DNA from: an uncultured Planctomycetia bacterium | GTDB taxonomy: Bacteria; Omnitrophota; Gorgyraeia; 2-02-FULL-51-18 | Reading direction: 5' to 3' | DNA: 64,000 nucleotides | Assembly: GCA_964431835.1 (NCBI GenBank) | Contig: CAYSKO010000009.1 | Span: 8,330-72,329 of the forward strand | Part shown: piece by piece, positions 43,701 through 64,000 of the stretch | Layout of the letters: each line of letters begins with the position of its first letter | Numbering within the stretch: position 1 is the stretch's first letter | The notes under the pieces: generated by a model | Seen by the model: the letters and a program-made list of their open reading frames with translations, nothing else | What the model was told of the DNA's origin: nothing | Databases searched by the model: none | Program-made: the position numbers and the translations under genes

Positions 43701-46700
43701 GCGACACCGGAGTTTACCGTCTGAACGCCGACGGCACCGTCCACTACTCGGGGGGAATGGTGGGCGGGACGTACAACCGTCCGTCCACCCTGACGCATTA
43801 CACCGCCGAGGGAAGCGGGGTCTGGAGCTTCGAGTTGTCCGCCGCCGGCCCGCCAGCCGCCGGTCAGCTGTACTTCATCGCTGCGGACACGACCACAGGC
43901 CCGACGACGGCCTCGCACCGAACGATCGCCACGCTCTACAACCTTTCGTCCGTGAACGGGAGCAGCAATTTCGCGAACTCCGACACGAATTTCCGTTACA
44001 CGTTCCAAGCCGACGGCACGGTCCTCGCGACGGACGTCCGCACCGGCCGCTCTCAGGTGGGCACGCTGAACGCCGCCGGAAACGGGGTTACGTGGAATGA
44101 GAACGCTTCGCCGCGGGCTCCCGCAGGCGGCGGTCCCATCGCGGTGACGTTGCCGGGCAACGACACCGTCACGCTGACCGGCGGCACGAGCGGCTTCCGC
44201 ATCACCGAGAACGGCACGGCGATGACGACCGAAGACATGATTTTCGCGGGTCCCGGCGGCCAGAGCCAAGTGCTCCGCCGTGGTGCCGAACTCAGCCTTT
44301 CGAACGATACAAACCACAACGTTAGCATCATCTCGGGCGTGATGGAATTCAACGGCGGCGCTTCCGCCAATCTCCCGAACGGCCACCTTCAGACCATCCA
44401 GCCTCCGACCCCGCCCGCCGAAGGGGACACGAGCAACGACCGGAATCAGGCCTCCGGCCCTACGACTAGTTCCCCCGGCCTCAACACGACTATCTCGCGC
44501 GACCCCGGCGGCCGCCTTCGCCTCACGGGCTCCATCGCGATCCAGAACAATCAATTCGTGATCACCGAAGGCCAGCGGATCAATATCAATACCACCGGCG
44601 ACTTCCGCTTCGGCGACCGGGCGATGACCCAGCAGGGCTCGTTCATGTTCGCGCGCCTCACCGAGCCCGATCCGAAGAAGCGCGAAGCGAACCCGAATCG
44701 CAACCAGCGCGCCGAGATCGTGACGCTCGGCGACTGGCAGTCGAACCAGCGCGCGCACCTGAGCCACACGTTCCCCAAGGAAGGCGCGACCGGGCTCCAG
44801 CGCCATTACAAGACTGAGGCCGAAAACGCGATCAACGATGGCAACGCCTCCCGCGCAAGCGCCGCGATGAACATGATCAGCGCCGCGGGCCAGGCCTACG
44901 CCATCCGCGAGCTTTCGGGCAGCGGCGCCCGAGAGCTTAACGACGTCGCGCAGAGCGGCACCTTCAACAACTTCGGGTACAATGACGTTCTCACCGAAAT
45001 GGACGAAGCGCAGCTTGCGCAAATCATCGGCGGCAACCGCCAGTTCGCCGCGTTTGTCGGGACTTATATGACCCTCCGCGGCATCCACCAGCAGCAGGAA
45101 GCTCACAAGGACGACGACGACGTGAAGGCCCAGCGCGCGCAGTTGGCCGCCATCGGCTTCAACCTGAGCAGCGACTACGATTGCGCCCGCTTGGCGCAGG
45201 CTCTCTCGGAGCCAGACTCCATGCTCCGCATCGAAGTGGGAGGCACGAGCCGCTACCTCCGCACCAAGGACGTCGAGGTCGGCGGCAAGAAACTCGAGAA
45301 GTGGGTCAAGGACGCTTCCAGCGACCTGCGCACGTGGTTCGACGAAAAGGCCTACGAAGAGAACGGTGGCAGCGGCAGCAAACTCACGTGGTGGGACCGC
45401 AACAAGTCGTACGTGTACATCGTGGGCGCGATCGCGCTCGCCGCCGCCACCTGCTGGATCCCGGGCGTGAACGTCGTGACGGCCTCCATCGCCGCGGGCG
45501 TCGCGTTCACGGTCGCGGTCGTGGCGCAGGTCGTCGCGAAAGGCCTCGACAATCTCCGCAAAGGCAACGGCTTCTTCACCGGGATGGCGACGGAGTGGAA
45601 TTGGAGCCCGATCGATAAGAACGGCATCCTTTTCAACGCAATCAACGCGGCCGCGCAGAGCTTCGCGCTCGCCAACGGCCTTGCGGCGCTGGGCCAGCTC
45701 GTGAATCACATCAAGTCCGCCGCCGACGTCGCAAAGAACGCGGGCCAAACGCTGACCACCGTGCAGCGCGTGGCGACCTCGGTGCAGGCCATGGGCACCG
45801 TGACCCGCGCGGTCACCTTGGGCCTTACGTTCGCCGCGGCGAACGTGGCGATGACCGTCGGTGCGCAAGCCGTCGAGAACATCCTGAGCGGGAAGGATAT
45901 CGGGCACAAGATCACGGCCGGAATGGTGTGGACCGCCGCCATTCAAGGTTTCGTCGTGGGCGTCACGGCGGGTTACGGCGCGAGAATGTACGGCGCGAAA
46001 GAGGCTTTCGCCAAGGCCACCGCGGGAATGCTCACGCGCGGCGCCATCACCAACGGCGTCATCGCGACCGCTCGCGCGGTTCAGTACGGCGTGATGTTCA
46101 CGGTGCCGTCCATGATCATGTGCGGTCTCGGCTTCCTCCTGGCCGCGGAAGTAGGCGCCGCGGCGGACGGCAAGACTCTGACCACGACCGACCGCGTCAC
46201 CGCGTTCGTCTCCGGCGCGATCGTCGGCATGATCATCAACTACGCGACCTCCCACAAGGCGACCGCGAAACTGAACGATTTCGCCAAGAACACCGGCAAG
46301 CTCGGAAGCGAATCCGGCAAAGGATTCCGGGACGGCGTCAAGTGGACCTACCAGCAGGGCTCCGCGTGGCACGTCACGAAGACATTCGGTCTGGGCGCCC
46401 TGGAGTGGGGCACGATGGTGTCGGTTCCGTTCACGATCGCCAACGGCCTCGTCGACGCGATGAAGAACGGGTTCGCCAACGGCGGTGGCATCGCGGGCGC
46501 CCTCAAGGGCATCATCGGCTGGTTCCACCCGATGACCGGCTTCACGATCCGGGGTCCGAGCGGCAAGCAGGACGATCAGGTCCGCATCGGTTCGCGCCAC
46601 GGCCTCGGCATGCTCTCGAACGCGATGACGCACGGCTTCATGGAAGGCCTCTATCTGAAGCCCATTCTCGGCGCCTTCCAGAAAGTGCACACGGCGCCCC

Positions 46701-49700
46701 CCCTCGGCGCTCCGGTTCAGGGGTGGGGCGGCTGGGCGATCGAGAAGTCGGTCCATCTCACATTCGACCAGGCGCACATGGCGTTCGAAATGGACTTCAT
46801 CAGCCGGGCGCTCGAGCTGGCCTCCCAGAAAGACGAGCACGGACACGACCGCGCCAGCACTGGTTTCAACGCTTTCACGGCGAACCTCATCATGTGGACG
46901 GTGCTCATCACGAAGCCCGAGGCGCTTTCGCGCGGCGGGTTCAAGGAATTCGCCCGCGAGATGAAAACCCACGCCGCGCAGGCCGAAGGCGTCCGCGCGA
47001 CGGGCCAGGGCAAGAACGACGGCGGGCTCAATACGAGCGTCGCGCGTCCCGAGACGATCGCCGAGACCGGCCAGCGCCTTGCCGAAAGCACGGCCGCCGA
47101 ACGCCAGACCGCCGCCGAAGAAGCTCCAAAGCATCAGCAGGCCGCTCATGAGCAGCTGAACCAGGATCTCGCCAACAACGTCCCGAAGGCGGAAGCGGTC
47201 GCCCGTTTCAATATGAACGTCGCTGAGGCGGACGCATCCAATGCCGCACGGACCCACGGCACCGGCTCCACCCAGCACTCCGAGGCGCTCACGCGGCTTT
47301 CGAACGCGCTCGCTGACGGTCAGGGCAAACTGCCGAAGGCCGAATTCGAAGCCGCCAAGCAGAATCTCACGGAACAATTGAACGAGGTCAACGCGTACCT
47401 CGCAGGCGGCACAGCGACGAACGCCGAGCTCGCGGCCGCCGCGCACCTCGCCGTCGCCGCCGCTCCGGTCGCCGGGCAGACGGCGCTCGCCACGACCGTT
47501 CTTCAGCAGATGCGGACGGCCGTCGCCGCGAACCCGGCCGAGGCCAAACAACTGGTCGACGCGTTCCGTGCGATGAATACCGCCTTCCAGACGTCCGTCT
47601 GGGACTCTGTACGCAAGTTGCTGACCGGCGAAGGGAACCCCATGACAGCGCTCCTCGCCGACGCCGCCGCGAACGTGGCCCGCACCGCCCTCGACGCGTG
47701 CAGGCCGGAGAACGTCGTCGACGCCGCTTCGGCGAAAGCCGCTTCCGAGGTGCTCAGCGCGCTGAACGGCGAAAAAGTCTTCCAGAACGCGATGAGCGAC
47801 GGGCAGAAGGCGCAGGTCCAAGCCCGCGCGCTCGAAATCGAAACGAAGGTCGGCGAGCTCATGAAGACGGAAGTCGACGTCACGAATCTCGAGATCTTGA
47901 TCGACACGATCTCCGCTCTCCAGGGCGTGAACGCCGCGGTCGGCACGGCCTCCGCCGCCACGATGCTCGAAGCCACGGGCAAGGCCCGCACGGCGGCTCT
48001 CGACAAGCTCCGCGAATCCAACCCCACGAAGGACGGTTACGACAAGGCCCTTGAAAACACCGAAAAGGCGTTCGAGCTGAGCACGAAAGCCACGGCGATC
48101 GTGACGCGCTCCACGGCGAAGACGCCCGCCGTCAAAGCCGCGCTCCAGACTAACGCCGACAGTCTGCTCAAGGATTCGGCGACGGCCCGCGAGAAGGTCA
48201 CGGCGGACTTGGAAGGCGCCATGGGCCCCTCGAAGGCCGGACTCAAGTTCATCGGCAGCATGATGAAGTTCCTTCAGGCCAACGCGAGCTTCCTGTCGGC
48301 CGCGATGCTCGAGATGAAGAACGCGGGTGTCAAGATCGACGCCGACGGCGTGAAGGCCAATCTCAAAGCGGTCGTGGCGACCGTCGAAAAGGCGCTGACT
48401 TTCGTCGCAGAGAATTTCGCCGATTTCGCGAAGTTGGGCCTGGACGGCCTGAACATGGTCGCCGACGTCATGAAGGCTTCGATGGATCTCCTGCGCCTGG
48501 CGGCCAAGGAAGGCGTCAATATCGAGGCGGCGACCGTGAAGCTCGTCGAATTGGCCGGCAAGTTCATGGCCCACATCGCGGACGCCAACATCGAGAAGCT
48601 CGTGGGCGGCGACTCCGGCAAGCTGCTGAATCTCGCGAACATCATCAACATCAACGCCCAGGCCATTAAGTTCGCCGCCGACGTCCTCGGTCCCGAGCAC
48701 GCGGCCGTTCAGGAAGCGGCGGAACACCTGGCGAACGCGATCACGAAGGTGAACACCTACATCGCCAACAACGTGAACCGCCTCATCGGAACCGACGCCG
48801 CGAAGCTCGCGGACGTGGCGAACGCCCTCACGATGAACGCGCAAAGCCTGCGCGTGGCCGCCGAGATCCTCGGTTTCGAGAACTCCGCGGTCCAGAAGGC
48901 CGCCACGACTCTCGCGGACGCCATCACGAAGGTCACGAATCACGTCACGAAGAACCTCGCGGCGATGGTCGGCGGGGACGCGAACAAGCTCGCGACCGTC
49001 GCTTCGGCCATCCTCGCCAACGCCTCGTCGCTCGGTGTCTCGGCCTCGATCCTCGGACACGGCCACGCGTCGGTCGTCGCGGCGTCCCGCGCGATCACGA
49101 ACGCCGTCCGGGCTATCACCGCACACACGAGCGCCAACTTCAACGCCCTGGTCAAGGACGCGAGGTCGCTCGAGAAAGTCACGACGGCCCTCGCCGACGC
49201 GGTCACCGCCCTCACGCGCGTCGCCACCAGCATGTCGCTCAACGCCAAGGACTACCGCAAGCTGAGCGAGGCCTCCGGCGAAGTGTTCTCGCTCATCGCG
49301 GGCAAGGTGTCCTCGGCGATCTCGACGATGGCGGACAAGGCCTCGACCGCCGCCGAGATGCGCAGCGTCGCCAACGCCCTCACGAAGGCGATCAACGCCG
49401 TGAACGTGATGGCTCAGCGCAACATGGTGGACGGCGTCGACGCCGCGAAGGTGACCGAGCGCCTGAGCAAGACGCTGGTGAAAGTGCTCGAAACGATGTC
49501 GGGCCAGAAGGCCAAGGGCAACACGCTTGCCGAGAAGATGAAGAACGCCCTCGAGAATTCCGTGAAGGGCGAAATCTGGTCGGGCCTCGAGACGGGCGCC
49601 AAAGCCGACATGCTGAAGGCCGCCCGCGCGGCTCTAGGCGGTGAAGCCGCCCGCGTGATGGGTGAAGGCGAGATCGGCGCCGCTGTCAAACAGGTCTCGG

Positions 49701-52700
49701 ATCATTACACGAAGCAGGCCGAGAGGGAGATGGCCAACGGCAAGGTCGGCGAAGCCGCCGAGTCGTACTCCGAGGCGCTCCGCGTCGATCCGATGTCGGC
49801 CACAGCCGTCGCGTCCGCGATCGTCGAAGCGGTGTCCTCGAAGGACGCGCGCGCGGTCGAGCAGCTCACCGAGAAGCTCCAGGACAACCCGACCGCGCAG
49901 AAAAACCTGCACGAAGCGCTTAACAAACTGATGGAACAACAGAACCTGCAGGTCAGCGACGCGCAGGTGGCCGAAATGGTCAAACTCGCCGAGCGCCTCG
50001 CGGTCGCGGAGCGTTCGCAGGAAACCGCCGCCGAAGCCAAGCCCGCCGAAGCGCGTCCCGAGACGGCCGAGGCGCCTCGCGTCGAGGGCGAGAAGAAGGC
50101 CGAAGGCGAGGCCGAGGCGAAGGATCCCACGCAGAAACTGAAGGACCTCGTCGACCAGAGCGGCATGCGGAAGAAGCTGACCGAAGTCCGCGACCGCCTC
50201 CAGGAAGACATCAAGAATAGCGCTGAGCAGGTGGAGCTGGTGAATAAGGCGATGGACGGCGTCATCGCCGAAGACGTCGCGTTCGTCCAAAAAGCCCTCG
50301 ACGGCATGCCGGAAGCCAAGCGCGCCGCCGCCGAGCAGGCGCTTAAGGAACAGTTGAACCTCGAAGTCGGCGAAGCTCTTCTGGGCAAGGACGGGAAACC
50401 GACGGGTGAATTCCGCGGTTCGAACCTGACCGTCCGGACCGCCGACGGCATCCTGACCCGCCTGGGCAACGCCGCGGTCACCCTCAGCGGACAGTCGAAA
50501 GCGCGCCAGGTGCGCGGCGCGGCCGTGGACGCAGCGATGGCCAAGCGAGACAAGGCTACGGCCGAGAAGAAAGCCACCGATCCTTCGACGGGCGCGAAGT
50601 GGACCGCCGAAGCGAAGGATGCTCTCACGGATCCCAAGCAGCTCGGCAAAAAATACGTCCGCATCGGCGGCGAGCTTTTCAACCGCAAGGCGGTCAGCGA
50701 AGCGGTCGCCAAAGCCGATGGACCCGCCGCGAAGAAACACGTCGAATCGCTGAAAGGCGAAAATAACAAGCAGGCCCGCGAAGACCTGAAGAGAGAGTGC
50801 GAAACCGCGACCGAAGTCGATCCGCTCGTCACGATCACCGTGGACGTCGACGGCACGCCCACGAAGGTCCGTCTCCATGCCGACGCATTGCGCGCCGAGG
50901 TCGAGTCCTACGAAAAGGACGCCGCGAAGGTACAGGAAAGCAAGGGCCAGGAAGGCACCATTCTTAATGAAGGCCGCCAGGCAAACGGTGATCCCGCCGT
51001 ACCGACCGGTAAGGGCACAAAGACCGCCGCTCCGGCCGCTCCGCGAACCACGGCCGAGGTTCCCAAGCCGGAAGCTCCGAAAGCCGCCGGAGAAGCGGGT
51101 GGTTCCGCGAAACCCGCCGCCGAGGGATCGCGTCGTCACCGCGCGAGCGCCGACCCGGCGAAGCTCGAAAAAGAAGCCGAAGGCCACCAGAAGAAGGCCG
51201 GAGAGCTCAACGAAAAAGCCGACCGTCTCGACGCGCGCGCCGACGCCCTGCGCGCCGAAGCCGAAGACGTCGCCCGCAAAGCCGAAGGCAAAGAAGGCGA
51301 AGCGGCCGCCGCCCAGAGCCAGGTCCAGCGCCTCTTGGCGAAAGCGGAAGCGCTGAGCAATAAAGCGGAAGGTCTCCGAGCCGAAGCGCGCGCCGCCCAT
51401 AATAAAGCCGAAACGCTCGAGAAAAAGGCGGCCAATCTGACGGCGGAATCCATCAATCTTCGCGCCAAGGCCGCCGAGAAACGCCGCGAGGCCCAAGATG
51501 TCGAGAAGAAACCGAAAGTCCAGGACGTTAACCAGGAGGACGCATTCCAGGACGGCGTCCACTACAACGCGGCGACCGACGGCCAGATGGGGCGCTCCGA
51601 AGTCTGCCGTTACGACCGCCGGACCGATTCCGTTTTCCGCAAGTTCGTCGCCGAAGGCAAGACCGCCTGCGACGCCGAGGCGCGACGCATCCAGCGCAAG
51701 GAAGGCCGCGAGATGACCGCCAAGGAAAAAGTCTTCTTCATGACCGAATTTGTGACCGAACGCATCGATTACGACAAGCCCGCTCTCCAGAAGATCAAGG
51801 CGAGGGCCGACGCAGCCGGCCGCGATTCCGTCGACATCGGCGAGATGATCAAAGAAGGCGTCGGTGTCTGCCGCCAGAAGGCGATGCTTGTCGGCTTCCT
51901 CCTCGCCGAAGTGGGCGTGAAAGCCAAGCTCTCCAACGGCGGCGCTCTGACCCACACGGGCGAACTCGGCGAGACCTACGGCGGCCACGCGTGGCTGACC
52001 GTCGAGGTGAACGGCAAGAAGTTCTACTTCGACCCCACGTGGGCCGAGGGCCAGAGCGCCAAAGACATGCGCCTTCTCTCGATGGATAGCGCGACCGTGC
52101 AGAAGACTTACAAAGAAGACATGACGCCGATGGTTAAGGGCGGCCGCAAACTTTTCGTGAAGGACGGCGGCGCTTCGCGCGCGGAAGCTCTACGAGCCGA
52201 GGCCACGGCCCTCGAGAGACAGGCCGATGCGAAATGGGCCGAAGCGGAAGTCGCCCGCGGGAGCGACGAAAGCTACCGCCGTGAGGCGACAGCCAAGGAA
52301 GCCGATGCCGCGCAACTGACCGGCCAGGAAGCGCCGATCAGGCGCGACGCGCAGTCCGCCTCGCGCCAAGCCAACGACGCCCGCCGGGAGGCGTCGAACC
52401 TCCGCCAGGACGCCGAAACCAAGAGCGAGAGGGCCGAGTCTTACGAAGTTCAGGGCGCCGAAGTCCGTGGCCGCGCGGCCGTCGAAGGGGCCAAGGCCAA
52501 CGAAGTCGGCGAGATGGCGCGTGAAGTCCGGAGCGAACAGGAAGACGCGGCGCGCCTGGCGACCGATCTCAGCGGGAATCTCCGCGGCGAGCGCGAAGCC
52601 GCTCCCGAGGCCGGAGAATCCGCCCGCCTCGCCGAGCCTGCCGGAGAGACCGCTTCCGCCGAAGCCCGCCGCGGCAATCTGCGCGGCCGCCAGGCCAGCG

Positions 52701-55700
52701 ATGTTTTGGGCGAGCTCGTCCGCGAAGGCGAGATCACGCCGGAACAGCGCGACGCGATCCAGACGCGCGTCGAGAAGATGCTCCGCGAAGGCAACGGCGA
52801 GATGCAGCCTTCCGCGTTCCTCGACCTCATGTCCACGATGCAGAACCAGATGAGCGCGAAGTCGTTCCGCCGCTCCTTCGACACGATGGATCAGTTCTGC
52901 GGTTCCTGCTCAATCCTCGCACACAACCAGATTGCGATGCGCGCCGCCGCCGGCGAGAACGTCGCCGCCGAAGTCCAAACGCTGAGCGCGGTCATCGAGA
53001 CGGCCCAGAGGGTCGGCGCGAAGATCGTGGATATCACGCCCGCCGAAATCCGCGACTTCGCCGCCGCCCGCGAAGTGCTCGCTTCGCGCGGCCAGGAAAT
53101 CCTTTCCACCGCGATCGAAAGCCGCATGGACGGTGAAGCCCGACGCTCCGCCGAAGCGGGGATCGCCCCGCCCGCGCTCGGAACCGTCACCGAAGGTCCC
53201 GAGATTTCCGCCGGTGAAAGCACTTCGAGTCCGAAGGTTGAAACCCGCGTCGAATCCGAAGCCAAGACCGAAACCAAGATCGAAACCGAAACGCGCACCG
53301 AGACCGAGACGCGCACTGAAGCCGAAGTTCGGACCGAAGCTGAAGTTCGCACCGAAGCGGAAGTTCGCATGGAAGCCGAAACCCGTACAGAAGCCGAGCC
53401 TACGCGGGCCTCCGCCGCGGCTCCCGAAGCCGAAGCACCCCGCGCCGAGTCCAAACGCGCGGCGACCGCCGAAGAAGCCCAGGTCCTCGAGAAGCGCGCC
53501 GAAGTCGAGGCCGCCCGCGCCGAGAAAACCGAAGCGCAGGCGAAGGTGGCCGAAAACAAGACCGCTCTCGAACAGAAGGCGGCTGAGCTCGACGGCGCCC
53601 GTGCCGCCGCCGAAACCGCCGCCGAAGCGGACAACGCGGCCGCCAAGCGTCTCTCGGAAGTCGACTCCCCCGAGCGCTTGCGGGCGGAAGTGGAACAGGG
53701 CGAGCGCACCGTCACCGAGAAGAAAGCGGAGAAGGAAGCCATCAGCCAAGAGAAGGCCCAGTGGAAAGCCCGCAACGAACTCGAAGCCGACCTCAAAAAG
53801 AGCGACGTCGTCGACAAGACGGAGGCCCGCGACATGGTGCTCGACGAAATCGCGGCGAAAGGCCCCTCGCCGGCGCGCGCCGAAGCCCTCCGGGAGGCGG
53901 AGAGCGCCCTCGAGGCGGCCAAGAATCATCCGCTCGGCGAACCGGCCGCACGCGCCGCGGCGGAAGCTTCCGCGAAGGCTTTCGACACCGCGAACATGAA
54001 GTGGCCGTCGCCCGTCAATTCCGCCACGCAGCGCGCCCGCGGGATCGCGCGGCTCGAAAAGGCCGAAACGGCCAAAGAAACGGAAATCCGGACGGCGGAA
54101 TCTGAAACACAGGCCAAGCGCGACCTTCTGGCCAGCGTCGAGGCTTCGAACGCCGGCAGCGCCCCGACCGCCGAAACGGCCAAACGCGAAACCGCGGCCC
54201 GCCGCGCCGAAACGGAAAGCGAAGTGCGGCGCCTCGAAGCGGAAGTCCAAACTTTAAGCGAACGGCAGACCGTCCTCGAGACGGAAGCCGCGCGCACCGG
54301 GGAAAACGCGGCCGCCCGTGAAGCCGAGCTGACCGTGCTGACGGTCGCCGACGCCCTCGTCGTCGAAAATCGCGCGAAAGTCGAAGCCGCCAAGACCGAA
54401 CACGCCTCCGCGAAAGAGAAGCTCGCCGAAAATAAGGCCGCGCAGGAAAAGAAATCGTCCGAGATCGAGACCGCCAAAGCGGAAGCGAAAGCCGCGCAGG
54501 AAACGCACGCCGACGCGTCTGTCCGTGCGAGCATCGCAATCAAAGAATTCCTCCGTATCCACAGCGAGCCGGCTCCCGCCGAGGGCCGCGAGACCGAGGT
54601 GCGTCGCGAGGAAATCGCCCGCATCGAAACGGAGCATACCGCCGCAAAAACCGCCAAGGAACAAGCGAACGTCCGCATGTACGAAGCGGGAGACAAAGTT
54701 TACCTTCTCGAAGCGGAGGGAACCGCCCTTAAGAAACAACAGTCCCTTCTCGAAGCGGAAGTCACGCGGACCGGCGAAACGGTGGTAGTCCACGAAGCCG
54801 CACTCGCCGAAAGCCTCCGCACGGTTGAAGCCCGCACGGCGCAGGCCGAAGCGAAGGCCGTAGAGGTCGAAGCGAAGGCCGAACAGGCAGAGGCCGTGCT
54901 CGATCTCACTGCGAAGACATCCGAAGCCCAAGCCGCCCGAGCCGAAGCGGATCAGGCCAAACAAGATCTCCGGAAGAACGGGGAAGACATCCGGAAGGCC
55001 GCGACCGTCAAGACTCAGGCCGAGTCAGCCCGGGACGCGGCCTTCTCCCGCGCCTCCAAAACGCGCCTGGCTTTCGACGCGGCTACCGCTCAGGTAGAAG
55101 CCCGCCGCACGTCGCTCGCCGAAGCTGAAAGCCAGCTCGCCGTCGAGACGACTCGTGCCGAAGGGGATTCCCGGACGCGCGCCGACATTCAACAAAGTAA
55201 AGCGGGGAACGCGGCCGAAACCACCAAGGCCGAGGGCCAGCTGGCTACCGCGAAGGAAAGTGCCACCGCGACCCACGCTCCCGAGGCGGAAGCCGGCAAG
55301 CGGTTCGAAGAAGCGTCGCGCGTCGCGGAAATCAAGAGCGCCGAACTTTCGACCGCCGAAACCACCGCCTCGCAGAAAAAGAGTGAACTCGCCACTCTGG
55401 TCGAGAAATGGAACGAGCTCGCCAAGCGCGCCACCGAGGGAGATCTCGCCGCGAAGGACGCCGAGTCGATTGGCCTGGACGTCCAGATCGCGGAAAAGCG
55501 AGCCGAAGTTCAGCACGCGGAGACGATCGCGCAGACCGCCCGTGAAGCGTCCGTCGTCGCCGAGACGGCCAAGACGGCCGCCGCCGAAGCGCTCAACGAC
55601 GCGATGATCGAGCGGGGCAACGCCGATCTCGAAGTGGCCGAGCTTAGCGCGCGCGTCGACTTCCTGCGCCGCGAAGGTGAGTATCTCAAGATACAGGAAA

Positions 55701-58700
55701 GCATCCTCAACGCCGACATGGACGGGGCCCGAACGAAGGTGGAAGCCGAGAAGTCCGAGCTCGCCCGAGCCGAAGGGGAAGAGGCGAAGGCCAAGGCGGA
55801 AGCGGATCGCGCGGGCCAGGACGCCGCCACTGCGGAGGCCGAGTATATCAGCGCGTCCTCCGAAGCGTCCCGCGCCGAAGCGATCCGTACGGGTCTTGAG
55901 GAAAACACCAGCCGCACCCAAACCCGCGTCGAAGAGACGACCGCCGCCGTCGAAGAAGCCCGCACGCGCGTGGCCGAAGCCGACGCCCGTCTGGGCGAAG
56001 TCGAATCCAAGGGCACCGCCGCTCCCGAAGCGTCCGCAAAGCCCACCGCAGAGGCCGCGCAAGATGCCGCCCGCGCGTACGAAAGCGCCCGAGCGGAAGT
56101 CGAGCGCGTCTTTAAGATCGTGGAACGCGCCCAAGGCGAACACGCCGCCCTTCTGGGATCCAAGAGCCTGGTCAAGGGCATGCTCGAGAAGCTGAACGCC
56201 GAGGTCGAAACCCTCGAGACGAAGAAACAGCAGCTCGAGACGATTCTCGAAGCCTTGAACGTCAAACTCCAGAGTGCCGAAACCCGCGCCGCCGACGGCC
56301 AGCGCCGCGTGGCGGAAGCGGAAGGACGTCTCGAGCAGGCCCGCACGAACCGCGACGCCCAGGCGCCGCGCCTTGAGGCGACCCGCCGCGAAGCGCGTCA
56401 GGAACGCCAGCGTGCGACGGTCGAGCGCGAAGCTGCCGAAACGACGGCGGGCGAAGCGCGCTCCACGGCCGAAACGGCCCGCGCCACCGCCGCCGAATCG
56501 CGCCGCGCGGAAGAGCCTCTCCGCCAGAAAGCCGCCGAAACCCAGGCCAAGCTCGCCGAAAAACGCGCCGAGCGCGACCGGGCCGCCGAGGCCACGAAGC
56601 CCGAAGATGTCACTCGCCTCGAGTCCGAGATCCGCGAAGCGGAAGCCCAGGCCGAAACCGCCGCCCGCGAGCTGGCCGAGGCCGAAGGCAAAACCGGCGA
56701 AGCCGAAGCCGCCGCTCGCTCCGCGGCCGCCGCCGAAACCGCCGCCGAAACCGAAGTTTCGCGGACGCGCGTCGAAGAAAAACGCCTCGGCGAAGAAGCC
56801 GAAACGCAGGAACGCGTCGCCGCCGAAGCGGAATCCCAGAGCCGCGACCTTGACCGCCACGTCGCGGAGGCCGAGCGCCAGGTTTCGGAGGCCCGCGCCG
56901 ACGTGAGCCAGACCCGCGCCGAAGCCGCCGACACCGGCCGTGAGATGAACGAGACGCGTCGCGAGATCGAGGAGATCGAAGACCGCATCAACGTCCTCAA
57001 ACTCCAGATCGTGGGCCTCCTCACCCAGCTTTCCCAGCTCGACGACGACATCGAGAAGGCCGCGCAGCGCGTCGCCGAAGCCAAGCTCGATCTCTCCAAG
57101 GCCCGTGCCGCGGAAGAGAAGGCCCAGGATGCCGTCGCTGAGACCCTGCCCCAGCCGACCATTCACGACGCCGTCAGCTTCGCCGAAGCGCTCCCGTCGA
57201 TGGAAGCGCGCCTCGTCGGCCAAAAGATGCCGCCGTCCGAACGCCGCGCCCGCATGGCGGATCTCGCCGGGAAAGCTCTCGAGCTTGCGCGCGTCGAATA
57301 CGAACGTCGGACCATCGAAAAGAAACTCGGCGTGGGAGAAGGCAGCACGATGACCGTGGGCGAGATCGCGGCGCGGTACCACCAGGCGCTCGAAGGCGTG
57401 AAGAAATTCCTCGAAGCCTCACCGAAGCCCGCGAACGCGGCCTCCGCCGCCGCCCGTGCGCGACTGGTCGAACGTCTGGCCAAGACGCTCGCCGCCCAAG
57501 AAACGCCGGTCGTGAAGGGCCTCGAAGTGAAAGGGGAGAGCGTCGTCGAGATCGTGGGCGCGGGCAAGAAGGTCGGCTTCGATTCGCCCGACGTCATGAG
57601 CCTCGCGGATCTTTCGAAAGCGCACGCCGACTCCTTCCGTACGCGCACTGTCGCCGAGCTCGCCGATCATCTTTCGAACAACGCCGCCGAGCTCCGGCGC
57701 GTGGAAGCGCACCTCGAGAACCCGACGCGCCCGACGCTTCAGTTCGAGCCATTCGGCGAAGCGAAGGTCGAAATCGACGGCCGCAAAACCGCCGCGCGCA
57801 TGGAAATCACGAACGAAACGCTCAAGAAGGCCGTCGCGGAAGTCGAGAAACGCCAGGTGAAGGCGCTGGCGGAATTCTTCGAGAAGAACCCGGAGAAGGC
57901 CGCCGCCTACCGCGAGGCGCTCGAGGCCCAGGCGAAGAAACAGTCCGAGAACGCGCAGGACGTCTCGCAAGCCAAAGACACGATCGACGGCTTGGCTCGC
58001 ACGGCGCTCGTCGAAGCGCTCGAAGCTCTGCCTCCGGCCGCCCACGGCGTCCGCGTCGAAATGCTCCGCCTCGCGCTCGGCCTCAACGGCAACGTTCCGG
58101 CCGCGATCCTGGCTCTCCAAAACGCCGGTCTCGCTCCAAAGACCGGCGAAACCGCCGCGGCGAAGCCTGCCGAGCGCGACACGCTGATCCGCCTCCTTCT
58201 CGACCTGCCGCCCGCCGCGCGGAACGCGGCGCTCTCATCTCTCCGCGCCGCCGAGCGCACGCACCGCGCCGGGGAAGCGCGCCAGACGATCGAACGCATG
58301 GAGAAGCTCACCCTCGAAGAGCGCGAGACGCTGAACCGCGCCGCCGAGACGGGCGACCTGGACACGCTGACGGGCAAGCTCGAGCCGCTCAAGGCGTTCG
58401 GCCGCGACGCCCTCTACGAAGCCACCGAGCTCCGCGGCCAGCGCGTGGCGGAGGCGTCCTCCGCCGCCCGCGTCGGCACCGCGATCGACGCGCTCATGCG
58501 CCTCAACGTGGACGCCGCCGGCGCCGCGAAAATACGCACCCAGCTTGAGTCCGACATCGCCAACCGCGGCAAGGAAGGCTACGTCGACAACCGCACTCTC
58601 TTCGATTCGAAGCTCGCGGAGCCGATCAAGTCGTTCGCGAGCGAAACGCTCGTCGAGGCCGCTCGCCGCATCGAAGCGGGCGAGGGCGCGAAGGGCCGCG

Positions 58701-61700
58701 TGACCGCCGCCCAGCTCGAGACGCTCCGCACGAACCTCGCCGAAGGCGCCGCTCCGAAGGCCCCCGAGGCGCTTCGCCGCTTCGACGCGGAAATCCTCGC
58801 CGAAGCGCTCGAAGTCGGCAAACTGGAAACTCTGAAGGCGGCCGAGATCGTCCGCACGCTGACTCTGGCCGAGCGGAACGCGATCCGCGAGCTCGGCGCC
58901 GTCGACGGAACGCTCGCCCGCTTCGACGCCGAAACACTCGCGACCGCGCTCGGCATGAACAAAGCCGAGCTCGCCGCGGCCCGCAAGCTTCTGGACGGCG
59001 TGCAGGAGACGGTGCTTCGCGGAATCCTTTCCGCGCTGCCCGACGGCGCGCGTTCCCTGACTGTTCGCGACATCCTCGACGCCGCCCGTCCCGCCGACGG
59101 CATCCTGAGGGACAAAGTGGAACTCGCCAAGGCGGAGTTCGACGCCTTGAAGCTCCACGCCGAGGAGCGCGAGGCGATCGCGGCCGACGCGGCCGCCGGC
59201 CGTATCGACGCGGCGCGCGAGAAACTCACCCGCGCCGCCGAACGCGCGGCCGTGGCGCTCGAAACCGAGCTCACCGAATCGGTCACCGCCAAGCGGATCA
59301 CGCCCGAAGTGAAGGCCGAACGCCTCGAGGCCTTCCGTAAAGGTCTCGCCGAGACGATCGCGGCCGTGGAAGCTCCCGCCCTCGGCGAAGCGATGCACCG
59401 CCTCACCAACTCGGCGGAGGTCCTGAAGGCGCGCAGAGCCTTCAAGGCGTTCGAACAATTCCTCGTGTTCCAGGTCAAGGCGGGCCGTATGACCGAGGGC
59501 CAGCGCCGTACCGCGCTCCTCGAGATGCGGAACGAGCTCCTGCACGGCCGGTCGGACGCGGTCAAGGAAAATGCGGTCAAGGCGCGCTTCGACGGCTTCA
59601 AGGCGTTCTCCCTCGAAGTGCTTCGCGAGGCGGCCGGCGTGAGCGCTGACGTCGCCTCCCGCGCGCACCAGGCGGCCCAGCAGACGATCTTCGAATTCTC
59701 TCGCTCTATCCAGCGTGATCTTCTGGCCAAGGTCGAAAAGCTCACTCTTCTGGCCAAGGTCGAAGCCGGGGATCTCGCGGTTCTTCCGGAAGGCCTCCGC
59801 GGAAAATCGCTCGAGGTGCTGCGTCAGGCCCTCGGGGCGACCTCCGAGCAAGTGGTTTTCGCCCGCGAAGCGGTCGGCGCCCTTGCGATTCCGGAGCTCC
59901 GCCGCCTGGGCGTCGAAGTGGCCCGCGATCTTCTGCGCCGCGCCGAAGCCGCCGAGCGCGACGGCCGCGCCGCCGAAGCCGCCGAGCTGCGCGACGCCTT
60001 CGCGATGGTCGGCGCCCGCGTCGCCGTGGAGCTCGAAGCCCACGCCGAACGGGCCGAAAAGAACGGCAACAAGGCCAAAGCCGCGGAGTTCCGCGACGCC
60101 GCCCGGTCGCTCGTCGAGGAAATCCGGAGCGAAGCGCTGGCCGCGGAAGAGGTCGCCCGCCTCTCGTCCGCCGAACTCGCGAGCGTGAAAGAAGCCCTCG
60201 TCCGCGGCGAAGTGAAGGGAGAGCTGGCCCTCTTCGGCGAACGGGCCGTCCGCAAGGCCGTCCTCGCCCGCGAAGCCGCGGAAGGCAAGTTCCGCGGTGA
60301 CGGCACGACGCGCGGCGAGCTTCCCGAGAAGGTCCGCGCGTTCTCGATCGAAACCCTCAAAGCGGCGCTCGGCGTCCGCGCCGAGCTCGTGCGTCCCGTG
60401 ACGAAGGTCACGGTCGAAGGACGCGAGCTCTCGAGCGCGGTGGTCCGCGACGCGCTCGCCCGCAACGTGGACGCGCAAGCCGACGCGCTCCTGGCCCGCT
60501 TCAAGGTCGCGCCCGCTCCGCGTTTCTCCGCCGCCGACTGGGTCTCTTCAAAAGTCGGCCGCGAGACGCGTGACGCGCGGGCGCAGCGCAAGCTCACCGA
60601 GACCCTTCTGGGCATGGGCGAAGCGAAGACGCACAAATTCGGCTACGAAGCGCCTCCCGCGCCGGCTCCTCGCCGGACCCGCAGCGGCGCGCCCGCGCGT
60701 GAAGGCAAGCTGGATTTGGGAGTGTTCTTCGACGCCTACCAAGTCCTTACCCAGGGCCGCGCCCAGGTCTTCAGCCGTGAAGCGATCAACCGCGCGCTCC
60801 AGAAACTCGAACAGAAGACGATGGGCGTCGACGCCGCCGCGAAATTCGTGCTCGAATGCCTCACCGTGGGCAACACGATGGAGCAGTACAACAAGCTGAA
60901 GACGCAGAAGCTCGACAAAGAAAGCGAAAGGGAGAACCTGGCCGCGCTGGAGGTCATTGCCAATCCGATGGAAGTTGCACGCCGCCTCGGCGAGTCCGTC
61001 GTCGAGAAGATCCAGGCGAAGGGCGAGGCGTACCTCCTTGCCAAAGAAGCGGTCGCCCAGCTGGAAAACGCGACTACCCGCAGAGCGCTCGAAGTCGCTC
61101 AGAGCGAACTCATGACGGCCTTCCGCGAAGCGCGCGGCGGCGCGAAGAACCAGTCGTTCCTCGATCTGGCCGTCAAGACGGGCATGGTCGAGAAGGCCGA
61201 ATTCGGGGACGTGTTCAACGCCTACAAGGCGCTCCGCGTCGGGGAAACCTCCGGTGGCTACGCCGAGTTCAACACGAAGAACCGTGCGTCGATCGAGCGC
61301 GTGATGTCCGAGTACAAGCTCGAGTTCGACGCGTACGAGAAGAGGCTTTCCGGCGACCCGATGACCCGGATCAAGCAGCTCAACGAGATCATGCGCCAGG
61401 AACAGGCGGCCGCGCCGGGCGAACGCGTCGGCGTGATCAAGGCGACGGCGATCACGGATCTCATCTTCCGCAATTCGTACGTGTCGGAAGGCACGAAGAT
61501 GCACCTGAAGGACGCCGGCTGGCGCCCGGGACAGCGCCTCATGATCATGCATCTCATGGGGAACAACAGCGTCTCGCTCGGAACCGCCGGCGGCAAAACG
61601 TACACCCTCATGGGCTACCACATCATGCGGCGCCTCACCGACGGCGAGACCTACCGCGGCAAGCAGGTCGTGGAAAGCCCCGACGCCGTGAACCAGATCA

Positions 61701-64000
61701 TCTCCGCCATGGAGCTCAAACTCCGCGTGGAAGGCAAGAAGACGGACGCGGAGATCTTCAGCGAGCTCGAATCGCGCCGTTCGGAGCTCAACTCCGAGCA
61801 TATCGTCATTAAAAACATGATGAAGGCCTCGGGCCTGCGCCTCTTCAACGCGACCGCCTACCAGGGCGGCGAGCTGCGTAACCACTCGGAACGGAGCGCG
61901 CGCGTGATCGACGCTCATACCGACAAGAACACGATCGTCGTCATCGATACCGTCAACAACGTCCACTTGAGGAACGAAGCGAAGTCGGCTGCCGAGAAGG
62001 GCGACACCAAGCTCTTCGAAGCGCTCCTCAAGTCGCGCTTCATCACGCTCGACGAATTCCACAAGTTCCTTTCGAACAAGAACTCGGGCATCATCGCGGA
62101 AAACCAGCGCATGCCGGAGCCTCGCGAAATCGAGTCGCTCATGGAAAACGTGATTTCGAAAATCGCGGACTCAAACTTCAAGCTCCATTGGGAGCCGGTG
62201 CGTTATTCCACGGAGACCGAATTTGAGGCGGCCGTCGCGAAGTACACGAACGGCGAAGGCGCGAACGAAATGAAGATCCTCATCAATTCCGAGACCGGAC
62301 AGATCAACCTGAGCAAGGCTCTCAACGACAGCCTGCGCACGGCGCTCGGCCCCGAGTTCGGTAAGGTGCGCTCGGTCATCTCGGCGCTGGACGCGAACGA
62401 ATTCCATTACAAGATCCATACCGACAAGGAAGGCAAGACGAAGGTCATCCCGGTCAACGGCCGCGAAGGCACGCCGAGCCCCGATTCGAGCTTCCAGGAC
62501 ATCGAGTACTCGATGACGCTGGCCCTGAAGCACACGAAGGGCAACACGGCGACCGCCCGAGAGATGGTCAGCCGCAGCGATACCTCGATGTCGAGCGCGA
62601 TCGCCGAGAGCGTGCACATCCCCGGCGCGGTCGTCACCGGCGTCTCGGGCACGCTCGGCGGCCTCGAGGCTCTCCAGAAATTCCAGATTGGCGAGAGGGT
62701 CGTGAACATCTCGGGTTCCGTGCTCGACGCGGTCCGCGTGGGCGGCACGAGGGGCCAGATCTTCGACATGTCGACCGGCGAGCAGGAATGGCTCGACGGC
62801 ATCAATTCGTCGCTCCGCGAGAACGTCACGGTACTCCTGGTCGTGAGCGCGAAGGAGCGCGACGCGATCGAGAAGTTCCAGAAAGGCGACTTATTCAAGT
62901 CCGCCGACGGCAAGCCGGTCGAAGTCGCGAAGATCGACTCCAACACGAGCGGCGAATCGAAGAACGGCCAGGCTTCGGAGATGGATCAGCTCGTCAAGTC
63001 GCCGTGGGGCAAGGACGGCCGCGCCCGCGTCATCCTCATCACCGAGCGCGGCTGGACGGGCCGTGACTACGCCCAGAACGCGGAGCTCGCGAAGTTCGTC
63101 GACGGCAAGCTCATGCACCAGTCGGTGCACATGGCCTTCTACAAGGCGCACACGATCGGCGCCTCCGACTTCGTGCAGGCCCTCGGCCGCGCCGGCCGCA
63201 GCGAAACCGAGGCCACGGTTCGCCGCTACTTCCTCGTGGACAAAACCGAGATCCGCCAGCGCCTTTCGGATCTGAACGACGGCCGCGTCCGTTCGGATTT
63301 CCGCCAGAAACTGAACGAGCGCCTCCGCGACAACCCCGCGGCGGTCGGCGAGACGCTGCGTCTCCTCAACAATTACGAGCGCCGCCTCAACATCGAAGAC
63401 TTGAGTCCCTCCGAACAGCTGCGCTTGAACGCTCAGTTCCTCGAGCTTTCCAACGCGATCGCCGACGGCGCGCGTCACACGGTCCGCGAGAACTGGCGCA
63501 GCTCGATCGAAATCGACCCGTTCCATCAGGCCATCAAGGCCGCCGCTCTCGCCGGCGGCAAGGGGAGCGCCCACTACCGCCGTCTGGACAAGGCTTACAA
63601 GGATCTCCTCGGCAAGCAGAGCGAAGGCGGCGATCTGACGCTGAAGGACGCCGGCGTGGGCAGCGGCGTCGACTTCGTGATGGACACGGCGCGCCAGAGC
63701 GTGAAGAACGCCAAGGAAGCGTGGAAGAACGTCGTCGACAGCATGGACGCGTCGAGCTTCGGCGCGGGCCGCCTTCTGGGCCGCGTGCCCTTCTCGATCC
63801 GCTTCTGGAAAGGCATCGTGCCGATTCCGTCGACTTCCGCGCCCGCGTACGAAGCGCGCCAGACGCTCGCCAAGCTCGAAGCGCTCGAGAAGGCTTTCCT
63901 GACCGGTAACATCGAAGCGACGCGCCTGCAGGTCGAGCGCGTCCAGCTCGGCCTCGACTCCGGCAAGGTCCGTGTCGAAACGCGCGGCATCGGCCGCCTC
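2..64000 (+). CDS. Internal fragment of a giant multidomain protein gene (21,333 codons in window; 5' and 3' ends lie outside the window)
   Basis: Continuous translation in the phase beginning at nt 2 gives protein-like sequence end to end. Hand translation at more than 10 checkpoints stayed in the same phase (atg 71, atg 545, GVTMAILD at 6881, GHGT at 7052, RWSYKK at 11222, atg 30527, atg 45986, Cys 51869, atg 52886, Lys 61595, GKVRVETRGIGRL at 63962..64000). The ORF track contains no + ORF in this phase, whereas an in-phase stop would have produced a reported Met-to-stop ORF, so there is no stop in 64 kb. Third codon positions are strongly G/C-biased in this phase only. Recognisable catalytic motifs (S8 triad, TGase triad, Walker A) all fall in this phase. 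Confidence 0.9.
6790..7650 (+). other. Subtilisin-like serine peptidase (MEROPS S8) domain embedded in the giant ORF; catalytic Asp/His/Ser all present
   Basis: Asp motif GVTMAILDSGFN (Asp codon 6899..6901). Calcium-loop-like DDDGNGYIDDVDGWNF. His motif DKLGHGTNVARAAL (His codon 7055..7057). NGAKVINLSIGGG, then AAAGNQG (oxyanion Asn region). Ser motif SESGTSMAAPLVAGAVALLMSKYP (Ser codon 7460..7462). Order and spacing D...H...N...S match subtilases. Confidence 0.85.
7750..10450 (+). other. Beta-rich region with several DUF5666-like short modules (tentative family assignment)
   Basis: Recurrent pattern G(T/S)V..VD....(T/S)I.V.G..V.V....(T/S)..........L..L..G..V.V. Examples: GTVLRDSRSRTITLADLKPEDYVQIRLVQTPEGWHAERV near 9570 and DATVEDVEGRIFPGGLADLSALLQAGQVRVSIKL near 9800. 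Family name is from memory of the DUF5666 consensus and is not verified. Confidence 0.35.
10570..14740 (+). repeat. About 10 tandem 140-aa beta-sandwich repeats (MAM/CUB-like jelly-roll; family tentative)
   Basis: Each unit shows ...G.W..Q.....(S/A)..S..I...........(S/T)F.WK(V/L)....(A/S).D.(F/L).(F/V)Y(V/I)DGV.......(G/D).W......L..G.H.L.W.Y(D/K)(R/K).(S/G)......D.A(W/Y)(I/V)D(E/D)(V/I). Units begin near 10570, 11000, 11330, 11740, 12170, 12610, 13030, 13470, 13900 and 14320 with X(T/G)F.YP.GT.LPLP.G(Y/F)T..G.W.NQN. Confidence 0.6.
14790..18670 (+). repeat. 7 tandem 185-aa repeats resembling Laminin_G_3 / concanavalin-A-like lectin domains
   Basis: Each unit contains ...Y(V/L)YFR(M/T)......GYA..(I/V)......(L/I)YR.......(I/L)......GAS(Y/F)DP(A/T).YH.LK(V/A)..DG..I.V.VDG........D..Y.G........(G/I)......P(V/I)WFDDV(K/R)(V/A). 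The WFDDV-type terminal motif recurs near 15285, 15840, 16400 (TFDDF), 16970 (IFDDF), 17525, 18085 (SFDDV) and 18655. Confidence 0.6.
18700..30450 (+). repeat. About 36 tandem 95-115-aa repeats (DUF5666-like beta modules; novel-looking array), some with Cys-pair inserts
   Basis: Period is about 300-340 nt. Recurring unit: G(E/D)W.(F/L)......(F/L)..........(S/T)LL..V......I.L.DG..I.(L/I)G...I(Y/F)WWNG.......(A/S).L...I......G..V. Examples start at 19378, 19687, 19960, 20270 and 20570, continuing to about 30450. Variant units carry Cys pairs: CAIGQGC (19241..19261), NCWNCY (23087..23098), NNCGSSLCP (23403..23425), CNSWSCY (27472..27489). Confidence 0.6.
30450..36450 (+). other. About 2,000-aa non-repetitive region of unknown function (mixed alpha/beta, many W/Y/D/N)
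   Basis: No internal periodicity seen by eye and no catalytic motif recognised with confidence. Contains the segment GISAFSAMSIF...AGAKLLVHMGDDHYITVDEYDAENDQIWFYED (30560..30930), which loosely resembles a papain/C39-like fold without the Cys. Confidence 0.4.
36450..42600 (+). repeat. About 21 tandem 85-115-aa repeats of a QQMRIQGPG family (unassigned)
   Basis: Unit: (F/V)...G(F/G)(S/A)(V/L).(A/V)(T/S)FE(K/L)(N/D)GV(S/T)QQMRIQGPG(A/S).VEV.V.(A/T)...DGT....AW(V/I)G(R/G).........NA...A..AA..DLST...REAF(M/L)..FE. The QQMRI motif occurs at roughly 38870, 39190, 39450, 39760, 40120, 40450, 40760, 41030, 41350, 41600, 41950 (TQTMRIAQAGG) and 42250; earlier copies are more divergent. Confidence 0.8.
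42900..44350 (+). other. Thr/Gly/Asn-rich beta region with YD/RHS-repeat-like motifs (tentative)
   Basis: Motifs of the Y.YD..G.. type: REFTYNPDGSS, EHSEYNADGDRTRMT, QRIVYNDGSVGVQTTRG, GVYRLNADGTVHYSGG, FRYTFQADGTVLATDVRTGR, TLNAAGNGVTWNENAS. No canonical RHS C-terminal DPxGL pair was recognised. Confidence 0.35.
45400..46540 (+). other. Polytopic membrane block: 8-9 predicted transmembrane helices (Gly/Ala-rich)
   Basis: Hydrophobic stretches of about 20-25 aa: SYVYIVGAIALAAATCWIPGV; VVTASIAAGVAFTVAVVAQVVA; ILFNAINAAAQSFALANGLAALGQLV; VTRAVTLGLTFAAANVAMTVGAQAV; ITAGMVWTAAIQGFVVGVTAGYGA; AITNGVIATARAVQYGVMFTVPSMIMCGLGFLLAAEVGAAA (probably two helices); VTAFVSGAIVGMIINYATS; TFGLGALEWGTMVSVPFTIANGLV; GGIAGALKGIIGWFHP. 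Short polar loops lie between them. The block is flanked upstream by beta repeats and downstream by alpha-helical/charged sequence. Confidence 0.6.
48590..49320 (+). repeat. About 4 tandem 60-aa alpha-helical repeats
   Basis: 180-nt period: N..(K/R)L.G.D..KL..(V/L)A.A...NA..L..AA.(I/V)LG.(E/G)(H/N).(A/S)V..AA..LA(N/D)AITKV......N, starting near 48595, 48775, 48955 and 49135. Confidence 0.5.
51780..52070 (+). other. Transglutaminase-like (papain-fold) domain core with Cys-His-Asp
   Basis: GEMIKEGVGVCRQKAMLVGFLLAEVGVKAKL (Cys codon 51869..51871). GETYGGHAWLTVEVNGKKFYFDPTWAEG (His codon 51986..51988, Asp codon 52031..52033). This reproduces the G.C...A.L...LLR..G(I/V).AR ... HAW.EV...G.W...DPT signature of transglutaminase-like cysteine-protease domains. 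Confidence 0.65.
53263..53400 (+). repeat. In-frame 18-nt (hexapeptide) short tandem repeat, about 8 units
   Basis: ETKIETETRTETETRTEAEVRTEAEVRTEAEVRMEAETRTEAE; nucleotide units such as actgaagccgaagttcgg / accgaagctgaagttcgc / accgaagcggaagttcgc at 53315..53368. Confidence 0.8.
57400..60550 (+). other. Alpha-helical region with recurring F..E.L..ALG-type motifs (unassigned)
   Basis: RRFDAEILAEALEVGK, ARFDAETLATALGMNK, FKAFSLEVLREAAGVSAD, RGKSLEVLRQALGATSEQ, VRAFSIETLKAALGVRAE each precede Ala/Leu/Arg/Glu-rich helices. Confidence 0.4.
61380..63260 (+). other. SecA-like SF2 (DEAD-like) ATPase motor domain: NBD1, PPXD-like insert, NBD2
   Basis: Q-to-Walker-A spacing identical to SecA: PGQRLMIMHLMGNNSVSLGTAGGKTYT (Lys codon 61595..61597; compare SecA [27 protein letters not shown]). 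Walker-B position is IVVIDTVNNVHLRNEA (compare ALVDEVDSILIDEA), so the catalytic Glu appears replaced. An insert of about 230 aa ends ...SMTLALKHTKGNTATAREMVSRSDTSMSSAIAESVHIPGAVVTGVSGTLGGLEA, paralleling the SecA PPXD C-terminal part and the KLAGMTGTADTEA motif. Motif V-like ARVILITERGWTGRDY (compare IATNMAGRGTDI). Motif VI-like FVQALGRAGRSETEATVRRYFLVD (compare [24 protein letters not shown]), codons 63184..63198 for GRAGR. Confidence 0.6.

Follow-up and report, generated by a model that had tools for sequence, protein, structure and literature searches.

A giant open reading frame from an uncultured Planctomycetia bacterium encodes a highly divergent SecA-like ATPase module that appears catalytically intact

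The stretch of DNA analysed here (the window: 64,000 nucleotides (nt) of contig CAYSKO010000009.1, positions 8,330 to 72,329, from an uncultured Planctomycetia bacterium) carries a single giant open reading frame (ORF) with a SecA-like ATPase module near the downstream end of the stretch. The plus-strand frame starting at nt 2 is free of stop codons across the whole window (21,333 codons), and the two other plus frames contain 165 and 570 stops; the window is therefore an internal part of one giant gene, open on either side. The codon for residue i of the encoded protein begins at nt 2+3(i-1), and amino acid (aa) positions below follow this numbering. The module, which self-BLAST finds in one copy in the window, consists of two nucleotide-binding domains (NBD1 and NBD2), an insert and a helical tail. 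A SecA-like domain embedded in a protein of more than 20,000 aa had been predicted, and the ORF, at over 21,000 aa, bears this out. The ORF, the module and its elements are as follows; AF2 denotes the AlphaFold2 model described below, and the insert occupies the position of the preprotein cross-linking domain (PPXD) of SecA.

2..64000, + strand: single giant ORF, open at both ends and without a stop codon, with Pfam matches to Peptidase_S8, 3keto-disac_hyd/LamG and Transglut_core along its length
61367..63916, + strand: conserved SecA-like ATPase module, aa 20456-21305 (NBD1, insert, NBD2, helical tail)
61577..61603, + strand: motif I (Walker A) LGTAGGKTY, aa 20526-20534, with K20532; read directly, and aligned by hhalign to MRTGEGKT (K108) of E. 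coli SecA
61931..61975, + strand: strand/helix element TIVVIDTVNNVHLRN, motif-Ib-like, which holds the tetrapeptide DTVN; its HLRNEAKS is aligned by hhalign to SecA YLRDNMAF, upstream of DEVD
62051..62062, + strand: true motif II (Walker B) DEFH, with D20684, E20685 and H20687, within FITLDEFHKFLSNKNSGIIAE; aligned to SecA VDEVD
62063..62638, + strand: insert of ~190 aa (aa 20688-20879) between motifs II and III, at the PPXD position; a folded alpha/beta unit in the AF2 model
62639..62662, + strand: motif III GVSGTLGG, aa 20880-20887, with T20884; aligned to SecA GMTGTA
63035..63070, + strand: motif V LITERGWTGRDY, aa 21012-21023; aligned to SecA TNMAGRGTDI
63176..63241, + strand: motif VI QALGRAGR followed by SETEATVRRYFLVD, aa 21059-21080; aligned to SecA, with Q...R..R conserved in relatives
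63242..63916, + strand: conserved helical tail after NBD2, aa 21081-21305, including LNAQFLELSNAIADGARHTVRENWRSSIEIDPF; conserved in relatives and helical in the AF2 model

The module has the layout of a two-RecA-domain ATPase of helicase superfamily 2 (SF2) with an insert of ~190 aa between motifs II and III, and judging from its motifs it looks like a catalytically intact, highly divergent member of the SecA type. All ATPase motifs (the Walker A lysine, the Walker B Asp-Glu pair and the arginine-rich motif VI) are present and conserved in relatives; GK[TS], DE.H, [ST][GA]T, G.TG.[DN] and Q...R..R are kept across members that share only 20-39% identity. The motifs quoted in the original prediction are found where it had placed them (aa 20460-21087), and their conservation in 14 relatives identified by phmmer means that they are not due to chance. 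Motif II reads LDEFH at nt 62048-62062 and stands in the family alignment in the context FITL-DEFH-KFLSNKNSGIIAE; a histidine-containing DE[FVIAL]H or DEGH is found in all 15 relatives that cover this site. In a 13-sequence alignment of the family (A1), the motif II columns D230, E231 and H233 and the motif III column T430 are at least 90% conserved. The element TIVVIDTVNNVHLRN upstream of motif II is kept in relatives as hhVhD.T.r.Hl.N. The motif V core is ITERGWTGRDY at aa 21013-21023, for which relatives keep G.TG.[DN][YFW], and the motif VI stretch at aa 21059-21080 reads in full QALGRAGRSETEATVRRYFLVD, the motif arginines of the window copy being R21063 and R21066. In the part of NBD1 that separates motifs Ia and Ib, the window copy also carries a charged stretch of ~25 additional residues (KLRVEGKKTDAEIFSELESRRSELN; aa ~20572-20596, nt ~61715-61789), which is missing from almost all relatives.

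Structure prediction and profile-profile comparison support SecA as the closest known relative of the module among the SF2 families tested. An AF2 model built with alignment A1 (mean predicted local distance difference test score (pLDDT) 74, predicted template modelling score (pTM) 0.59; ending at aa 21185) contains two alpha/beta domains, a confident insert and a helical tail, and A1 was needed to obtain it, since the single-sequence model was unusable (pLDDT 36). Comparison with the PDB using Foldseek placed SecA or SecA2 structures in 15 of the top 17 positions (E=3e-10 to 1e-6). DinG at rank 5 (E=4e-9) was the sole intruder, and DEAD-box, Snf2 and RecQ proteins followed at 1e-6 or worse, so the predicted structure favours SecA without a sharp separation from its DEAD-box cousins. 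We further compared A1 by hhalign with profiles of SecA, DEAD-box and DinG proteins that were built from public plasmid and E. coli records. Against 15 diverse SecA/SecA2 sequences the score was 68 (probability 92.5%, P=4.8e-7, 440 columns), compared with 35 (P=0.003, 70 columns) against five E. coli DEAD-box proteins and 27 (P=0.05, 29 columns) against eight DinG proteins, whereas reversed-sequence controls gave P=0.1-0.5. In the SecA alignment, query positions 53-617 are matched to E. coli SecA residues 78-595 with everything between motif I and motif VI co-linear, the insert included, as had been proposed from the motif order. As a yardstick, the SecA and DEAD-box profiles score 77 against each other, so the distance between the module family and SecA is comparable to that between SecA and DEAD-box proteins, yet the family has the SecA architecture. 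A diverse SecA alignment was required for this result: against the single E. coli SecA sequence, hhalign gave A1 a probability of 4%, and the homologues retrieved with E. coli SecA as query all had at least 89% identity, which made them unfit for a profile.

The insert, at ~190 aa compared with a spacing of ~180 aa at the equivalent position in E. coli SecA, is modelled by AF2 as an alpha/beta unit with pLDDT mostly at 75-93 (model residues 250-430). A large insert before the GxSGT motif had been predicted and is present, but with motif II correctly assigned it measures ~190 aa, not 230. In the full-length hhalign alignment it is co-linear with SecA residues ~213-390, and two sets of landmarks are paired between the module and SecA, namely EMKILINSETGQINLS with EGHFSVDEKSRQVNLT, and VIPVN.REG...FQDIEYSMTLALKH with VIIVDEHTGR...WSDGLHQAVEAKEG. 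Homology of the insert to the SecA PPXD is plausible, although the insert compared by itself gives no significant match (below). The tail helices occupy residues 627-705 of the AF2 model.

When 1.84 billion cluster representatives were searched exhaustively with phmmer, 14 relatives of the module were identified, the best with E=1e-90, 6e-63 and 2e-60 at 35-40% identity; all of them are large proteins of 1.2-7.2 kaa or fragments of such proteins. No relatives were returned by a word-index homologue search, neither with the single sequence nor with A1, and such fast searches thus give false negatives for proteins of this kind. In a scan of GTDB species genomes, relatives were found in two Candidatus Omnitrophota metagenome-assembled genomes (MAGs) and in one uncultured Planctomycetia MAG, each within an ORF of ~6,000 aa or more. 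Genome contigs scanned with the single window protein yielded no relatives, and no relatives of the module were found in metagenome contigs or viral contigs. The related giant ORFs are located as follows.

L002, 1-17811: giant ORF that encodes the relative P0001
L003, 2930-22063: giant ORF in which the motifs are also conserved
L004, 2-19363: giant ORF in which the motifs are also conserved

When the whole window protein was compared with these ORFs by blastp, a strong match was confined to aa 20456 to ~21305, the only other match being a weak one between aa 16183-16556 and L004 (E=5e-4); the module thus forms a conserved cassette shared by giants that are otherwise unrelated. The motor had been described as C-terminal, which holds within the window, but the ORF runs past the window end and ~2,400 residues without a Pfam domain follow the motor in relatives. 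A Pfam search of the flanks and neighbours of the relatives gave only a weak RHS repeat match. Outside the group of Planctomycetes, Verrucomicrobia and Chlamydiae (PVC), another large protein with a SecA-like domain was noted on the Mycolicibacterium arabiense plasmid pJCM18538 (MOBF), where the coding sequence 188139-198560 encodes a hypothetical protein of 3,473 aa whose SecA-like domain shares 25% identity with E. coli SecA residues 17-597.

The module is preceded at a long distance by a cluster of hydrophobic segments, at which the composition of the window protein switches sharply.

45413..46165, + strand: cluster of some three helices of transmembrane-like hydrophobicity (Kyte-Doolittle peaks of 1.9-2.1 over 19 residues), at aa 15138-15181 and 15364-15388

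The ~15,000 residues upstream of the transmembrane cluster are rich in Thr, Gly, Ser, Ala, Asp and Tyr, with 17-26% charged residues and almost no Cys, and those after it are rich in Ala, Glu, Arg, Lys and Leu, with 27-36% charged residues. Within aa 17000-19000, Ala reaches 20-22% and Glu 14-17%, matching the jump in AT skew at 50-58 kb. The module begins ~5,100 residues past the cluster and lies within the half of the protein that is charged and helical; in the related giants, hydrophobic clusters are found 1,500-2,600 residues upstream of the motor, and L002 and L003 have more hydrophobic segments downstream of it. An odd number of helices together with an ectodomain-like N-terminal part would place the motor on the side that provides ATP, the cytoplasm, and we infer from composition and topology that the module is on the cytoplasmic side and that the 15,000 residues before the helices are ectodomain-like. 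The presumed ectodomain includes a Pfam Peptidase_S8 match (E=7e-35), three stretches of 3-keto-disaccharide-hydrolase/LamG type and a Laminin_G_3 match (S8 and LamG-type stretches at 6872-7606 and 17117-18070), as well as matches resembling carbohydrate-binding modules upstream of the transmembrane cluster; aa 8001-16000 have no Pfam match. On the presumed cytoplasmic side, a transglutaminase-like core with a papain fold was observed at aa 17235-17340 (51704-52021, Pfam Transglut_core, E=2e-5), which may parallel the C39-type peptidase domains that have been linked to self-cleavage in giant proteins (West-Roberts et al. 2023, bioRxiv 10.1101/2023.11.21.568195).

Long open frames are also present on the minus strand (for example 14368-22299, 56458-61428 and 60548-62062; up to 2,644 codons), one minus frame having only 42 stops in 64 kb. 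These were rejected as genes, the homologues and domains being in the plus frame, and they are most likely a by-product of GC-rich codon usage.

The most likely mechanism, to which we assign a probability of about 0.65, is that of an active, membrane-tethered polypeptide motor of the SecA type; an active SecA-fold ATPase as such deserves greater confidence than this overall reading, and export of the ectodomain less. By analogy to SecA and SecA2, the module would bind and hydrolyse ATP, and a clamp between the insert and NBD2 would grip and push unfolded polypeptide. Its tether to the membrane would be provided by the giant protein's own helices, in place of the scaffold, wing and C-terminal domains of SecA. 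Its most likely job would be that of a dedicated SecA2-like translocase that aids export of the enormous ectodomain in this class of giant proteins. Since the motor is synthesised after the ectodomain, its substrates would have to be other copies of the protein, chains already translated, or partner proteins. A more far-reaching version is a self-contained, membrane-tethered 'auto-translocase' that would work independently of housekeeping SecA and export the ectodomain (>15,000 residues) of sister copies or, once translation is over, that of its own chain; this we consider quite unlikely.

Several results weigh against the polypeptide motor. The profile search that had been suggested as a check was negative at the level of standard annotation: none of the Pfam models SecA_DEAD, SecA_PP_bind and SecA_SW (PF07517, PF01043 and PF07516) matched the window copy, 12 relatives or three loci at E<=1, NCBIfam gave no SecA match for the window copy, and the A1 profile found no SecA among PDB sequences at E<=10, only sub-threshold DEAD-box proteins and Mfd RecA2. 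Likewise, aa 20407-21332 as a single sequence had no SecA or helicase match in Pfam, NCBIfam, PHROGs or PDB (phmmer, E<=1-10). The check succeeded at the profile-profile level, where the match to SecA (P=4.8e-7) is better than that to DEAD-box or DinG. Taken alone, the insert shows no significant similarity to the SecA profile (P=0.59), and against a column-shuffle null it reaches z=1.8, with the real score attained by 3 of 40 shuffles. The tail (aa 21074-21185) has no significant match to the scaffold, wing or two-helix finger of the SecA profile, and SecA_SW does not match the module; in canonical SecA, the scaffold, wing and two-helix-finger region contacts SecY. In addition, the topology is derived from a simple hydropathy scan, the choice of polypeptide rather than nucleic acid as substrate is made by analogy to SecA and SecA2, and both gene ends and the genomic neighbours fall outside the window.

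The chief competing explanation is a generic SF2 enzyme working as a nucleic-acid helicase or as an RNA chaperone, either DEAD-box-like or of the DExH type seen in DinG/XPD; it would act on RNA or DNA, for instance on its own >64-kb mRNA, and its insert would be unrelated to PPXD. Sub-threshold Pfam DEAD and Helicase_C matches in one or two members (E=0.005-0.1), matches of the A1 profile to Mss116 and Mfd RecA2 in the PDB (E=0.11-0.2), the rank of DinG in the Foldseek list and the weak PPXD similarity of the isolated insert all point in this direction, and XPD/DinG enzymes likewise pair a DEAH motif with an insert between motifs II and III. We nevertheless regard a helicase as unlikely: the profile scores and the lengths of the matched regions are greater for SecA than for DEAD-box or DinG proteins, SecA dominates the structural matches, the two halves fail to chain onto the DEAD-box profile even with the insert taken out, and the setting in a membrane-anchored giant surface protein matches that of the published SecA-like domains. 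The region is also nearly free of Cys (at most one per 1,000 residues), which excludes an Fe-S cluster, and an identity as DinG/XPD, with DExH and an Arch-like insert, was rejected on the profile score and the lack of Cys.

Two other explanations accept the SecA fold and differ on what it does. The original prediction read DTVN (aa 20649-20652, nt 61946-61957) as a degenerate Walker B motif without the catalytic glutamate, and proposed a nucleotide-binding but hydrolysis-impaired clamp or switch. DTVN does follow a hydrophobic strand, VVVID (VVVIDTVNN around aa 20646-20654), and lies ~115 residues past the P-loop, roughly where Walker B is expected. However, a canonical hhhhDExH motif (FITLDEFH) that is nearly invariant in the family is present 35 residues downstream; hhalign places DEFH on SecA VDEVD and the DTVN strand on the segment before YLRDN, where it matches SecA "ITYGTNNEFGFDYLRDN"; and relatives have DYIT, ENMT, DHTS, DKTA, DRTV and other variants at the DTVN position, with neither a conserved acidic pair nor any mark of a catalytic site. 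DTVN thus reflects a misalignment of the kind that the prediction itself had named as fatal to it, and with the misaligned motif refuted the hydrolysis-impaired reading falls, the DExH being intact in all relatives that cover it; we give this reading hardly any credence. An active SecA-fold ATPase might instead have no export role, and either remodel or regulate the helical cytoplasmic part of its own giant protein or pass a signal through the membrane to the ectodomain. This would agree with the failure to detect the SecY-docking parts of SecA (scaffold and two-helix finger), with the thousands of residues that separate the module from the membrane helices and the further ~2,400 that follow it in relatives, and with synthesis of the ectodomain long before the motor. 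No positive evidence speaks for it, however, the conserved helical tail might represent a scaffold that has diverged, and accessory SecA2 proteins demonstrate that divergent SecA paralogues do retain export roles; we consider it very unlikely.

Returning to the active polypeptide motor, its built-in SecA-type engine is the sole recurrent machine-like module linked so far to the question of how proteins of 20,000-100,000 residues are made and exported in bacteria, and it is the one strongly conserved unit between otherwise unrelated giants of two phyla. That the ATPase site is intact speaks for a working motor rather than a degenerate relic. As the motor lineage reaches well below Pfam detection, surveys that count SecA_DEAD matches underestimate it. 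If the auto-translocase were true, giant surface proteins of PVC-group bacteria would carry their own SecA-derived motor and export proteins in a new way, defined by a SecA lineage too divergent for standard annotation.

The arrangement itself, which the original prediction had called unexpected, has been known since 2023 (West-Roberts et al., bioRxiv 10.1101/2023.11.21.568195), and the published picture is unchanged. According to that study, SecA DEAD-like and preprotein-binding domains of divergent sequence are encoded by most full-length giant genes in Omnitrophota and by some in Actinobacteriota. These domains have no scaffold or wing, come after transmembrane anchors towards the C-terminus, form a cluster separate from housekeeping SecA and may function in the export of the giant protein or of accessory proteins. 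A PF07517 architecture cluster is also listed among Omnitrophota giants in a 2026 preprint (bioRxiv 10.64898/2026.06.07.730766). The protein described here resembles the 'Archaeovorin' and 'Dockerin-type' giants of Omnitrophota and the giants of Actinobacteriota in several respects: (i) an ORF longer than 10,000 aa in which a SecA-related ATPase comes after transmembrane helices; (ii) no detectable SecA scaffold or wing and extreme divergence from housekeeping SecA; and (iii) an ectodomain of peptidase and carbohydrate-binding type, with relatives of the module in giant ORFs of Omnitrophota and Planctomycetia. In contrast to the published domains, which are recognised by Pfam SecA_DEAD or SecA_PP_bind, this subfamily has no Pfam SecA match at E<=1 and took exhaustive phmmer, AF2 and profile-profile comparison to reveal, and its motif II is DExH, not DEVD. 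New here are the extent of the divergence, the DExH form of motif II and a relative in Planctomycetia.

Among the other known systems, SecA2 (mycobacterial SecA2, PDB 4uaq, and the Gram-positive aSec proteins) differs from the module in being free-standing, in keeping DEVD and in being readily found by SecA profiles, at 33-39% identity to SecA. DEAD-box helicases have a contiguous RecA1 domain, a Q motif, and DEAD and SAT motifs ~30 residues apart. The module, unlike them, has neither a Q-motif nor a DEAD signature and separates motifs II and III by 190 aa; its insert is incompatible with a DEAD-box core, and its profile matches to DEAD-box and DinG proteins are short and local only. XPD and DinG (Rad3) combine DEAH with an Fe-S cluster domain between motifs Ia and II and an Arch domain after motif II, whereas the module has no Fe-S cysteines.

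Compared with housekeeping SecA (E. coli, PDB 2fsf; B. subtilis, 1tf5), a soluble protein of ~900 aa, the module is a covalent part of a membrane protein of >21,000 aa, shares ~12% identity in structural alignments, has DEFH instead of DEVD, and has no detectable scaffold, wing or C-terminal Zn-finger region. The likeness extends to the order NBD1, insert, NBD2; to motif I with a first position other than Gly or Ala (LGTAGGKT and MRTGEGKT); to the hLRN/YLRDN element before motif II; to hhDE.. followed by a strand ending in IIS/IIA; to GxSGT/GMTGTA followed by a hydrophobic strand; to TG.D and GRGTD in motif V; and to Q..GR.GR....R.Y in motif VI, for which SecA has ..SRFY. It is this housekeeping SecA that provides the best structural match of the module.

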